Below, in pieces: positions 40,739 to 44,519 of a stretch of DNA of 64,000 nucleotides (its first letter is position 1; every line of letters begins with the position of its first letter). The stretch lies in NCBI GenBank assembly GCA_963668695.2, contig CAXXLQ010000004.1, positions 2,240,001 to 2,304,000 of the forward strand, given 5' to 3'. The translations under genes were made by a program, and so were the position numbers. Origin of the DNA: Vicinamibacteria bacterium (lineage in GTDB: Bacteria; Acidobacteriota; Vicinamibacteria; Marinacidobacterales; Marinacidobacteraceae). The notes below the pieces were generated by a model that saw only the letters and a program-made list of their open reading frames with translations, did no database searches and was not told the origin of the DNA.

Positions 40739-41047
40739 CCAGCAGCCTGTGGACAAAGTCACGCGGCCCAGTTTTCCCGGTGGGGGCTCGACCGGCGATG
40801 CATCCCGGCTGAACCGCGCCACATCGTGGCGCTCTGCGTTGCGCTTCGGTCGAAACACGCTCGGGCCAGTTCTCCCGGTGGGGGCTTCTCTCTCGCGCGC
40901 CTTGTCAGCCGGGCCCCCACCGGGAGAACTGGCCCCACCGGGAGAACTGGCCCCACCGGGAGAACTGGCCCCACCGGGAGAACTGGCCCCACCGGGAGAA
41001 CTGGGCCTCACCGCTCTCGGCACTCACGCCACTTTATCCACAGGCCG
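40739..41047. mobile_element. MITE-like element family A, copy 7, with 5x tandem 18-bp module
   Basis: cagcctgtggacaaagt...actttatccacaggccg; (ccccaccgggagaactgg)x5 at 40915-41004. Confidence 0.85.
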
Positions 41048-41053
41048 CCGGGC

Positions 41054-41794
41054 ATGAGCGAGACGCTGCCGCTTCACCCGGGTGCCGGAGCGCCGCGTAA
41101 GCCGGGGTCAGGACAGGAAGTCCGCGCCCGCCGCGACCGGGTCCGGGAGCAGGTAGGGAGCGAGCGGTGGCGCGCGGGCTGCGAGGCGCTGGTGGTGGAG
41201 GCCGCTCTCGCGACGCTCCAACTGACCGGCGCCGCCCTCTCGGAGGAGGAGATTCGCGCCCTCCGCGAGGGGGCTCCTACCCCCACATTCGGGCCTTCTC
41301 TCGGAGCCCTCGGCCTTCTCGGGCGCGCTGCTCGAGATCGGGATCCGAGCGAGGAGCTGATTTCCGAGGTTCATGCGGTCGCCAGCGGGCTGACCGGAGC
41401 AAGCTCTTTTCGCACCCATCAGATCGAACCACAGTTTCAGGCGGCGAGCCTCTCCCCGCCACAGACCGTTTCGCTACGGCTCGGCGAGCTCCTTGACTGG
41501 ATTTCCGGCGCCAGCGCAAAGGATCTCGAGACCGCGCCGCGCGCGGCGCTCTTCTTTGCCCGGTTCCTGGAGATCTCGCCCTTTGAACGCGCGAACTTCC
41601 GGGTGGCGCACCTGATGCTCACCTTCTTTGCTCTCGCTGACGACCAGCCGCCCATTTGGTTCGAGGTGGAGGACGCACCGGGGATCCGGGAAGATGTCTC
41701 CCGCGCCTTCCGTTTCGATACCGGGTCGCTGACGGAACGGATCGACCGATCCCTCCACCGTTCGCTGGATCGGGTCGAAAATGCCGGCCGCTAA
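41054..41794 (+). CDS. Fic-domain-like protein with degenerate motif
   Basis: AALFFARFLEISPFERANFRVAHLM aligns with HPFxxGNGRxxR; upstream ATLQLTG..LS.EE and EVH...FRT segments. Confidence 0.65.
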   Translation: MSETLPLHPGAGAPRKPGSGQEVRARRDRVREQVGSERWRAGCEALVVEAALATLQLTGAALSEEEIRALREGAPTPTFGPSLGALGLLGRAARDRDPSEELISEVHAVASGLTGASSFRTHQIEPQFQAASLSPPQTVSLRLGELLDWISGASAKDLETAPRAALFFARFLEISPFERANFRVAHLMLTFFALADDQPPIWFEVEDAPGIREDVSRAFRFDTGSLTERIDRSLHRSLDRVENAGR

Positions 41795-42288
41795 CAGCCT
41801 GTAGTGAAACCCCCGCGGCCCAGTTCTCCCGGTGGGGGCTCGGCCGGCGATCCATCCCGGCCGAACAGCCGGTGATGAAACCCCCGCGGCCCAGTTCTCC
41901 CGGTGGGGGCTCGGCCGGCGATCCATCCCGGCTGTTCACCGCGTCGCTTCGCGCCGCTCATCGTTGCGTTTCGGTCGGAATACACCCGGGCCAGTTCTCC
42001 CGGTGGGGGCTCCTCCCTCACGCGCCTTGTCAGCCGGGCGCCTCGCCCCCACCGGGAGAACTGGCCGGCCTCGGCGCTCACGCGGGTTCCACCACCGGCT
42101 GCTAACAGCCTGTGGCAAAACCCACGCGGCGTTCGACCGGCGATCCATCCCGGCTGAACCACTCCGCTTCGCTGCGTTCTGCGTTGCGTTTCGGTCGAAA
42201 TACACCCGGTATTCCTCCCTCACGCGCCTTGTCAGCCGGGCGCCTCACCGGCCTCGGCGCTCACCCGGGTTTCACCACAGGCTGTTAA
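41791..42288. mobile_element. MITE-like element family A, composite copy 8
   Basis: Two elements joined at CTAA 42102-42105; 71-bp internal duplication; ends TTAA. Confidence 0.85.
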
Positions 42289-42358
42289 GGGCCCGCTACA
42301 ATCCGAAGCATCGGGTGATGCGGGGCGCCTTTTGACCGGCGCCGGCCCGGTATCCGGA

Positions 42359-42634
42359 ATGTTCCAGCGGTTCGGCCCCCTCGGCTCTCTCGTTTCGTGG
42401 GCGATGCTCCAGCAACGGCAGACGGTCGAGTTCGTGACCCTCCCGCAGACGGAACCCCCCCGCGGGATCCTGACCCTGATCCTTGAGTCCTTCGCCCTCG
42501 CCGGGACGCTGGTCCTGGCAACCGTGCTTGTCGGCCTCGGCTTCGGAATCTTCCGCATCTGGCTCATCCGCCGCTACCCGGACAACCGTTTCAACGGCAG
42601 CGGACGGGATACCCCCCGGCTCGACCTCAGTTGA
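42359..42634 (+). CDS. Small membrane protein (start uncertain)
   Basis: One long hydrophobic helix ILTLILESFALAGTLVLATVLVGLGFGIF; TTGA overlap with the next gene. Confidence 0.6.
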   Translation: MFQRFGPLGSLVSWAMLQQRQTVEFVTLPQTEPPRGILTLILESFALAGTLVLATVLVGLGFGIFRIWLIRRYPDNRFNGSGRDTPRLDLS

Positions 42635-43044
42635 CCGCGGCGGCACATACCCGGACCCCCGATCGCGTTCCGCTCGTCATCTACGACGGCGGCTGAGGCT
42701 TTTGCACCCGCGCCGCGGTCGCGGCGGCCCGATTTGCCGGCGAGCGGCCGATTCGCTTTGCTGCCTCTCAGGAGCTGACCGACGACCAATTGGTCGGGCT
42801 CGGCATCTCGCGAACTGCATGTGAAGAGCGCGTCCGCTTCAGGGACCTGAAGGGGCGGTTCCACGGTGGGGCCTTCGCGGTGAACCGGTTCCTCCTCTAT
42901 GCCGCTCCCCCGGGCCCGCGGGGACTTCCCGCGCGCATCCTGGCGGTGCTCGCCTACGCGTTTCCGCCACTCCTGCTCGCCGAACTCGCCGCCTACGAAA
43001 TCGTCGCCCGGAACCGTGGCTGTCGCCTGCTCAATCCGTCTTGA
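42631..43044 (+). CDS. DCC1-like (DUF393) thiol-disulfide oxidoreductase with in-frame TGA; candidate selenoprotein (UxxC)
   Basis: Reads LVIYDGG*GFCTR with TGA at 42694-42696, continuing in frame to FHGGAFAV...YEIVARNR; hairpin CGCCGC-GGTC-GCGGCG just downstream. Confidence 0.75.
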
Positions 43045-43597
43045 GCAGCCCGTGGACAAGGTGAACCGGCATTCGACCGGCGATGCATCCCGGCCAAACA
43101 ACCGGTGATGAAACCCACGCGGCCCAGTTCTCCCGGTGGGGGCTCGGCCGGCGATCCATCCCGGCTGAACTGCCGGTGATGAAACCCACGCGGCCCAGTT
43201 CTCCCGGTGGGGGCTCGGCCGGCGATCCATCCCGGCCAAACAGCCGGTGATGAAACCCACGCGGCCCAGTTCTCCCGGTGGGGGCTCGGCCGGCGATCCA
43301 TCCCGGCTGAACCGCGTCGCTGCGCGCCGCTCATCGTTGCGTTTCGGTCGGAATACATCCGGGCCAGTTCTCCCGGTGGGGGCTCCTCCCTCACGCGCCT
43401 TGTCAGCCGGGCGCCTCGCCCCCACCGGGAGAACTGGCCGGCCTCGGCGCTCATGCGGGTTCCACCACCGGCTGTTCACCGCGTCGCTTCGCGCCGCTCA
43501 TCGTTGCGTTTCGGTCGGAATACATCCGGGCCAGTTCTCCCGGTGGGGGCGCCTCCCCGCTCTCGGTGCTCGCCCCACTTTGTCCAAGGACTGCTAA
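43042..43597. mobile_element. MITE-like element family A, composite copy 9
   Basis: Starts at the DUF393 stop; 71-bp unit x3 (modules at 43124, 43195, 43266); ends ggactg-CTAA. Confidence 0.85.
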
Positions 43598-43640
43598 ACG
43601 ACGGTATCCTGCGCTACCGGCCCATCCGAGGAGGTCTCTC

Positions 43641-44519
43641 GTGCTTCGATTCCGTTCTTCAACACTCGTCTCCACCCCGCTGCTGCTCGTTCTTGGCTGC
43701 GGAGCTCCCCCTATGGAAGAGCCGATGGAACCGGCTGCGGTCGCCGTTGATGATCAGCCGGCCGGGGAGTACGTTCGGTTCGAGAGCGATTCGGGCGCAG
43801 CGACATGGGGCCGCGTCGACGGCGACGAGATCGTGGCCCTCCACGCGGCGCCCTGGGCGGGCGGAGCCCCGACCGGGGAGCGGGTTGCCCGCTCCGGAGC
43901 GCGTCTCCTCGCCCCCGCCGATCCGGGCAAGGTAATCGCGATCGGACTCAACTATGGCTCCCACCTGGGCGACCGGGAGCCGGCTCCCTATCCGGGGGTG
44001 TTCGCCAAGCTGCCCACGAGCATTGTTGGGCCCGGTGACGCTATCGAGATGACCGAGGACGCCGGGAACGTCCATTACGAGGGCGAATTGGTCCTGATCA
44101 TCGGCAAGGAGGCCAGTGACGTTCCGGTGGACCAGGCTCAGGATTACATTTTTGGGGTGACCGCCGGCAACGACGTGAGCGAACGCGATTGGCAGGGCGC
44201 CGATCTCCAGTGGTTCCGGGCGAAGGCCTCGGATACCTATGGACCGATCGGGCCGGTGATTTCACGCGGAGTCAACTATGACGACCTCGAACTCACGACC
44301 CGGCTGAACGGCGAAATCGTCCAGCAGCAGCGGACCAGCGACCTGATCTTCGACTCGAGCGACATCGTGAGCTACGTGAGCCGCTACGTGACCCTGATGC
44401 CTGGCGATGTCATCTTTACCGGGACCCCGGGGAGCACCCAGGCGATGAACGAGGGCGACACGGTCTCCGTCGAGGTCGAAACGGTCGGCGTCCTCGAAAA
44501 CCCGGTCGCTCGCCGTTAG
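43641..44519 (+). CDS. Fumarylacetoacetate hydrolase family protein with lipoprotein signal
   Basis: KVIAIGLNY, HYEGEL, GNDVSERD, RAKASDT, PGDVIFTGTP; lipobox LVLGC; GAGGAGG RBS. Confidence 0.9.
   Translation: MLRFRSSTLVSTPLLLVLGCGAPPMEEPMEPAAVAVDDQPAGEYVRFESDSGAATWGRVDGDEIVALHAAPWAGGAPTGERVARSGARLLAPADPGKVIAIGLNYGSHLGDREPAPYPGVFAKLPTSIVGPGDAIEMTEDAGNVHYEGELVLIIGKEASDVPVDQAQDYIFGVTAGNDVSERDWQGADLQWFRAKASDTYGPIGPVISRGVNYDDLELTTRLNGEIVQQQRTSDLIFDSSDIVSYVSRYVTLMPGDVIFTGTPGSTQAMNEGDTVSVEVETVGVLENPVARR

Follow-up and report, generated by a model that had tools for sequence, protein, structure and literature searches.

Evidence for a DCC1-like selenoprotein with a UxxC site in one genus of Vicinamibacteria

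The DCC1-like gene, its product and the upstream partner

The window, i.e., the whole stretch of 64,000 nucleotides that was analyzed, belongs to a Vicinamibacteria genome (G000; 4.1 Mb, 67% G+C), a MAG with 91.7% completeness and 9.3% contamination; every genome compared with it in this work is likewise an uncultured MAG. The forward strand of the window carries a short reading frame, which is opened by a TTG codon, is crossed by one in-frame TGA and stays open through to a second TGA at positions 43042-43044 (Table 1). The TTG, the internal TGA and the hairpin located behind it were found exactly where the original prediction had placed them. Among the 69 open codons upstream of the internal TGA, this TTG is the sole in-frame ATG, GTG or TTG, and the only in-frame CTG lies 45 codons upstream. 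The junction with the preceding gene reads agTTGA in 16 of 16 sequences of the genus, and GTGA, CTGA or ATG was found at this place in other genera. The list of open reading frames contains only an 84-aa tail of the frame (42790-43044), as had been noticed from the beginning, and in the public protein collection the gene with the internal TGA is represented only by unnamed products of 84-98 aa. The scan for promoter- and terminator-like sites gave none of the former and three of the latter (2.7 expected).

Table 1. Features of the DCC1-like locus (positions in the window) and of three further genes of the same genome with an in-frame TGA (positions in contig C4)
Feature	Position	Strand	Remarks
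Upstream partner gene	42332..42634	+	small hydrophobic protein of ~75-100 aa, start uncertain; 4-nt overlap with the DCC1-like gene
Predicted DCC1-like selenoprotein gene	42631..43044	+	137 residues with Sec as residue 22; coordinates include the terminal stop; translated with TGA = U
TTG start codon (inferred)	42631..42633	+	overlaps the TGA stop of the upstream gene (42632-42634) as TTGA
UGA proposed to be read as Sec (U22)	42694..42696	+	replaces the first Cys of DxxCxxC
TGC, Cys25	42703..42705	+	second (putative resolving) Cys of UxxC; invariant in the 107-member alignment
23-nt invariant block, proposed SECIS core	42709..42731	+	codons +5 to +11 plus 2 nt; +15 to +37
Candidate SECIS apical hairpin	42711..42726	+	6-bp stem CGCCGC (42711-42716)/GCGGCG (42721-42726), loop GGUC (GGTC, 42717-42720)
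Prx-like gene, GGWUPFC (L047)	C4:3082821-3083459	-	TGA in Pfam domain, kept in 28/28 family genomes
OsmC-like gene, GGUMVGT (L058)	C4:3081768-3082442	-	adjoins the Prx-like gene; TGA kept in 28/28 family genomes
Peroxiredoxin gene, TGGUT, TxxU (L059)	C4:3587185-3587877	+	TGA kept in 27/27 matching genomes, 28 searched

When TGA is translated as U, the product (...VPLVIYDGGUGFCTRAAVAAARF...YEIVARNRGCRLLNPS) matches the Pfam family PF04134 (DCC1-like, formerly DUF393) across the TGA codon, at residues 16-129 and profile positions 1-107 of 113; the score is modest (37.3 bits at a cut-off of 27.8, E 7.4e-9), and NCBIfam gave no match to the protein at E up to 1. The family motif DxxCxxC takes here the form D19-G-G-U22-G-F-C25, so that the TGA occupies the first Cys position, in agreement with what had been proposed initially. 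In an alignment with 107 diverse members of the family, every one of them also a PF04134 match, D19, the first Cys, C25, Y122 and R129 correspond to invariant columns.

The AlphaFold2 model calculated with this 107-sequence alignment (pLDDT 89.1, pTM 0.80) replaced an earlier, poor one based on 13 sequences (pLDDT 62.6). In the model, strand b1 (residues 15-18) is followed by helix a1 (23-36), strand b2 (42-45), two short helices, strands b3 (69-71) and b4 (77-79), a helix at 81-91 and two C-terminal helices; residue 22 is located just before a1, which is the classic CxxC position. Structural matches of the model were weak, with a Foldseek E of 0.026 and a Z of 6.3 at best and no match reaching Z 8, and almost all of them were chains of the thioredoxin superfamily, namely Grx, Trx, PDI, GST and CLIC1; a sequence search found no solved structure of the DCC1-like family.

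The upstream partner gene has no Pfam match, the best 19-residue hydropathy window of its product is 2.23, and a protein atlas returned for it only unnamed acidobacterial clusters. The partner stands upstream of the DCC1-like orthologue in all 25 family loci checked, at a distance of 332 nt in one of them (G017), and was not found at the locus of a genome from another family (G032).

The hairpin behind the UGA and the selenocysteine machinery

The stem of the candidate SECIS hairpin begins 14 nt after the UGA, its 4-nt loop, with G at positions 1 and 2, follows the UGA at 20 nt, and its energy is -10.8 kcal/mol; the stem and loop letters, the 20-nt distance and the initial G of the loop had all been given exactly in the original prediction. 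The SECIS element of E. coli fdhF has a GGUC loop as well. The hairpin fits the published bSECIS model in every respect, the model requiring, as presented in Fig. 2 of the review PMC13188914, a loop of 3-9 nt, a stem of 4-16 bp, a G at the first two positions of the loop, a distance of 16-37 nt from the UGA and MFE ≤ -7.5 kcal/mol. Taken alone, the hairpin is weak evidence for a SECIS element, since 11.6% of 1500 random TGAs of the genome precede a hairpin that fits the same criteria; a hairpin as stable as the one considered here stands behind 4.1% of them. Its stability was discarded as evidence, being unremarkable when compared with shuffled sequences (z +1.81), 198 of 200 of which fold at least as well. 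The Rfam scan of positions 42550-43350 gave 12 matches, all below the gathering scores and none to a SECIS family. The genome contains the 16-nt hairpin at one other place (C4:2194762, minus strand), behind an out-of-frame TGA; this copy, which encodes GAAVAAE, was rejected as a chance match.

The genome possesses the Sec machinery on which the original prediction depended. The genes selA (499 bits), selB (306 bits) and selD (253 bits) were all detected above curated cut-offs, and tRNA-Sec was recognized both by ARAGORN and by the Rfam model RF01852 (69.7 bits vs 47). As selA was detected in every one of the 28 genomes of the family, the genera with Cys forms of the DCC1-like protein also use Sec. 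Among the Sec users in the examined part of the BSepDB supplement is a Ca. Marinacidobacterium genome. A search of G000 with TIGR01553 gave no FdhA.

Other selenoprotein genes were sought by scoring all 45,402 TGA codons with open flanks using a codon log-odds model, which replaced a screen based on GC3 only that had missed the DCC1-like gene. The threshold was passed by 1,636 codons, among them 414 with a Cys, Ser or Thr partner in the vicinity, and 20 of these 414 were picked by eye for Pfam analysis, so that the resulting list of selenoproteins is a lower bound. No Pfam domain extended across the TGA in 17 of the picked candidates; the other three were the Prx-like, OsmC-like and peroxiredoxin genes of Table 1, all of which represent known selenoprotein families. 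All four genes, including the DCC1-like one, fit the bSECIS criteria, and a common layout, with the stem beginning 13-14 nt after the UGA and a loop of 3-4 nt starting with GG, is shared by the DCC1-like, Prx-like and OsmC-like genes. In the peroxiredoxin gene, the best downstream hairpin has the loop GUUU and, with a spacing of 37 nt, only just falls within the bSECIS range. The Sec trait seems to be maintained in this lineage by small redox selenoproteins.

The residue inserted at the UGA is not readable from sequence alone, and a continuous product could also arise by read-through without Sec, either by near-cognate insertion of Trp, Cys or Arg or by a general reassignment of TGA. A reassigned code is excluded by the usage of the codon in the genome, since TGA is the commonest stop, being used by 482 of the 810 long ORFs, and the coding signal is lost behind it: the coding log-odds across ordinary TGA stops change from +0.41 to -0.59, compared with +0.03 before and +0.20 after the TGA at 42694. 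The only tRNA with the anticodon UCA revealed by ARAGORN is tRNA-Sec, the tRNA-Trp having CCA. Since, moreover, the codon occupies a redox Cys position, is followed by a hairpin fitting the bSECIS model and has counterparts of the same pattern in three other genes of the lineage, we regard decoding of this UGA by anything other than Sec as highly improbable.

Conservation of the TGA and selection on both sides of it

Related genomes, 41 in number, were searched with stop codons read through. Homologues with a TGA aligned to the Cys codon, which the original prediction had called for, were found in all 15 other species of the genus, at 76-94% protein identity. The first redox codon is thus TGA in 16 of 16 genomes of the genus; it is TGC in the other 12 of 12 genomes of the family (nine from six other genera and three searched later) and in G032 of a neighbouring family, which makes 13 sequences with TGC. 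Records with two TGA codons merely count the true terminal stop as well. The copy in G015 is split across two contig ends, hence 15 full-length Sec forms were used in the comparisons described below.

In the alignment of these 15 forms, the longest invariant run of the gene is the 23-nt block, which coincides with the hairpin; the next longest run is 6 nt. No synonymous change was observed at seven consecutive four- or six-fold degenerate codons, while elsewhere in the gene only 8 of 71 such codons were likewise unchanged. The 105 pairs of Sec forms displayed no differences at the 23 positions of the block and on average 12.1 differences at 73 positions of its flanks, whereas four pairs of closely related Cys forms (three congeneric and one between two genera) differed at 4-5 of the 23 positions. 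Invariance in the Sec forms and variability in the Cys forms imply that the constraint appeared together with the TGA. A hairpin conserved among the TGA-bearing homologues, also called for originally, is thereby found in all 15 full-length sequences without change. As judged from the alignment, this conservation, i.e., the TGA in all 16 genomes combined with the invariant block on the hairpin, goes beyond chance. Of the 17 pairs predicted by RNAalifold, none showed a compensatory change, the stem being identical in all sequences; for the same reason the invariance shows a constraint at the nucleotide level and not base pairing as such.

A stem without covariation, located near a stop codon as are the hairpins of some attenuators, might also belong to a gene with two products, in which the UGA would end a leader of 21 codons, the downstream domain would be re-initiated and the invariant block would serve as an attenuator or protein-binding site instead of a SECIS element. 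The distribution of substitutions in the 15 full-length Sec forms argues against such an arrangement. Codons -8 to -1 before the TGA have a dN/dS value of 0.078; after it, the value is 0.079 at codons +1 to +31, not counting those of the hairpin, and 0.149 over the 84-aa tail, compared with 2.7 and 1.7 when the same DNA is read in the other two frames. There is no ATG, GTG or TTG between the TGA and position 42790, yet codons +1 to +31 are constrained as strongly as the rest; equally constrained are the eight codons before the TGA, which encode the beta-strand and the DGG motif of the family. Low dN/dS on both sides, together with the absence of a start codon before 42790, speaks strongly against a separately initiated tail as well as against a pseudogene. 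Besides, a downstream product would be devoid of the family-invariant D19 and of the first redox residue, and the Cys-form orthologues are one continuous protein. Two separate products are even less probable than read-through without Sec.

Least probable of all is that the TGA arose by nonsense mutation or sequencing error in a dead or mis-assembled gene, to which the truncated gene calls and the contamination of the genome might point, for the same codon recurs in 16 independent assemblies of diverged sequence, purifying selection (dN/dS ~0.08) acts on both of its sides, and a dead gene would not hold the 23-nt block invariant while its flanks diverge. The preference of the original prediction for Sec read-through over a pseudogene is therefore supported by the conservation of the TGA, by the selection on its two sides and by the presence of the machinery.

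Proposed decoding, relation to known proteins, origin and surroundings

Considering the above, the UGA at 42694 is very probably decoded as Sec, and the DCC1-like frame in all likelihood represents a genuine selenoprotein gene. The following course of events is proposed. SelB carrying Sec-tRNA(Sec) would bind the hairpin behind the UGA, which would then be decoded as Sec with no termination; the resulting protein of full length would have its D-G-G-U-G-F-C site just before the first helix of the predicted thioredoxin-like fold. If the protein works like other UxxC selenoproteins, the nucleophilic attack would come from Sec22, and the selenenylsulfide would be resolved by Cys25. A Cys that is replaced by Sec is almost always a catalytic redox residue; the exchange hence supports the view that the first Cys of DxxCxxC has a redox role, providing indirect functional evidence for the poorly characterized DCC1-like family.

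The protein shares with the Cys-type DCC1-like (DUF393) proteins, such as Arabidopsis DCC1, the family assignment, length, predicted fold and the invariant D, C, C, Y and R columns. Arabidopsis DCC1 is described in a review as a member of the DxxCxxC thiol-disulfide oxidoreductase family that reduces a subunit of complex I (PMC7598583). The Cys orthologues of sister genera are positional ones, with 49-68% identity and the same upstream partner gene. What distinguishes the protein under study from all these Cys forms is that its first redox residue is predicted to be UGA-encoded Sec and that the UGA is followed by the invariant hairpin in the codons of helix 1, a stretch which varies in the Cys forms and does not vary in the Sec forms. 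On the other hand, selenoproteins with UxxC in a thioredoxin fold are well represented, comprising Sec forms of Trx, Grx, Prx-like, DsbA-like and other proteins (Table 1 of PMC13188914). They resemble the present case in having Sec in place of the N-terminal Cys of CxxC at the start of helix 1, in having many Cys homologues and in carrying the SECIS element within the coding region, shortly behind the UGA; the UxxC gene of the Prx-like protein in the same genome also has a similar hairpin layout. The DCC1-like protein differs from them in belonging to another protein family.

Whether Sec forms of this family had already been reported was a question left by the original prediction, and none was found in the literature searched, where no selenoprotein was paired with DUF393, PF04134 and Marinacidobacterium being likewise unmentioned. 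Table 1 of the 2026 review PMC13188914, with its 119 families and subfamilies, has no entry for PF04134, DCC or DUF393; a search by term did not find DCC or DUF393 in the main texts of PMC13326102, PMC12013277, PMC5029168 and PMC2398784, nor do they occur in the examined part of the BSepDB supplement. The DCC1-like protein thus represents a selenoprotein family new to the catalogues examined, although of the familiar UxxC thioredoxin-fold kind, for which reason a specialist would find it moderately surprising. The list of bacterial selenoproteins is thereby extended by one protein family, and a cut-short gene call is corrected in at least 16 species.

The 28 orthologues were placed in a maximum-likelihood tree, where the full-length Sec forms, 15 in number, make up one clade (support 95/99) nested among the Cys forms, so that a single change from Cys to Sec is sufficient. 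The outgroup branch is long, and the root and the direction of the change rest mainly on the family-wide invariance of the Cys. The Sec form would accordingly go back to a single change of a Cys ancestor, at the base of one Vicinamibacteria genus, in a family that already used Sec for its peroxiredoxin, Prx-like and OsmC-like proteins. Since the sister genera have the same Sec machinery and keep Cys, they offer a clean before-and-after comparison for the origin of a UGA codon and a SECIS element within a coding sequence.

A survey of PF04134 in 401 genomes of the phylum, which included the unpublished genomes G064 and G192, revealed no TGA and one TAG among the 150 matches listed. Three N-terminally truncated proteins (P0080, P0081 and P0150) were considered as a second Sec lineage and rejected, as the ordinary Cys-type motif DGDCGxC was present in 23 of 23 readable loci; their metagenome loci numbered 26, the remaining ones being L091 and L109 without upstream DNA and L115, a weak partial match. 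The candidates P0006 and P0008 turned out to be start-codon artefacts of Cys forms.

Outside the phylum, a DCC1-like sequence LIFDGG*RFCTRCV with TGA at the same first-Cys codon was found in the genome G515 (locus L123, C1:589850-590500), which belongs to the phylum of a genome titled Microthrixaceae. Among 121 genomes of that phylum, 2 of 29 PF04134 matches had one TGA, the other match being in the unpublished genome G445. The apparent swap of Cys for Sec therefore recurs in the DCC1-like family, in at least one other phylum. The two cases are alike in the position of the codon (FDGG-TGA-RFC in G515) and differ in what follows it: the sequence downstream of the TGA in G515 is unrelated to the Vicinamibacteria hairpin, and no simple hairpin with a perfect stem was found there. 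Judging from this unrelated sequence and from the nesting of the Sec clade within the Cys forms of the same family, the Sec form of Vicinamibacteria seems to have arisen independently.

All these observations can be combined, tentatively, into a picture of a recent and independent birth of a selenoprotein, which we consider a serious possibility, if one somewhat short of being probable. According to it, the catalytic Cys would have been exchanged for Sec in one genus and fixed there together with a new SECIS hairpin, which, lying inside the codons of helix 1, would have frozen the seven codons R-A-A-V-A-A-A, while the sister genera, with the same Sec machinery, would have kept Cys and a freely varying sequence at this place. 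Sec would then mark the first Cys of DxxCxxC as the catalytic nucleophile of the family, and the conserved 4-nt coupling to the gene of the small membrane protein would suggest a membrane-bound selenium redox pair. Taken together with comparable events in other phyla, it would make the DCC family a repeated natural experiment on the joint origin of Sec codons and SECIS elements.

Several features of the surroundings and of the assembly were registered in passing. Identical contexts occur twice in G000 (C4:3850259 and C4:76353; C4:3833039 and C4:59221; C3:17917 and C4:3522840), and a tRNA cluster Gly-Cys-Leu is duplicated at C1:119176-119517 and C4:328171-328512; the doubled contexts, some of which match C1 or C3 to C4, suggest large duplications or redundant contigs, the contamination estimate being 9.3%. 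Upstream of the partner gene, the ORF 40826-41794 encodes a Fic/DOC domain (E 3.7e-7) and, close to the N-terminus, a stretch weakly matching collagen repeats, and a 167-aa ORF at 41832-42335, which is Arg-rich and echoes a dispersed repeat, is probably no gene. Downstream of the DCC1-like gene, a 71-nt unit is present in three tandem copies, 91-96% alike (43073-43315), and its copies also lie upstream of the operon (41781-41910); with 636 blastn matches in 279 clusters genome-wide and nothing above the Rfam threshold, the unit belongs to the abundant, dispersed intergenic repeats of the REP/MITE type. Further on, two 80-nt direct repeats (43311-43390 and 43478-43557), 98% alike and 167 nt apart, are located between the DCC1-like gene and a gene of the fumarylacetoacetate hydrolase family (43566-44519).
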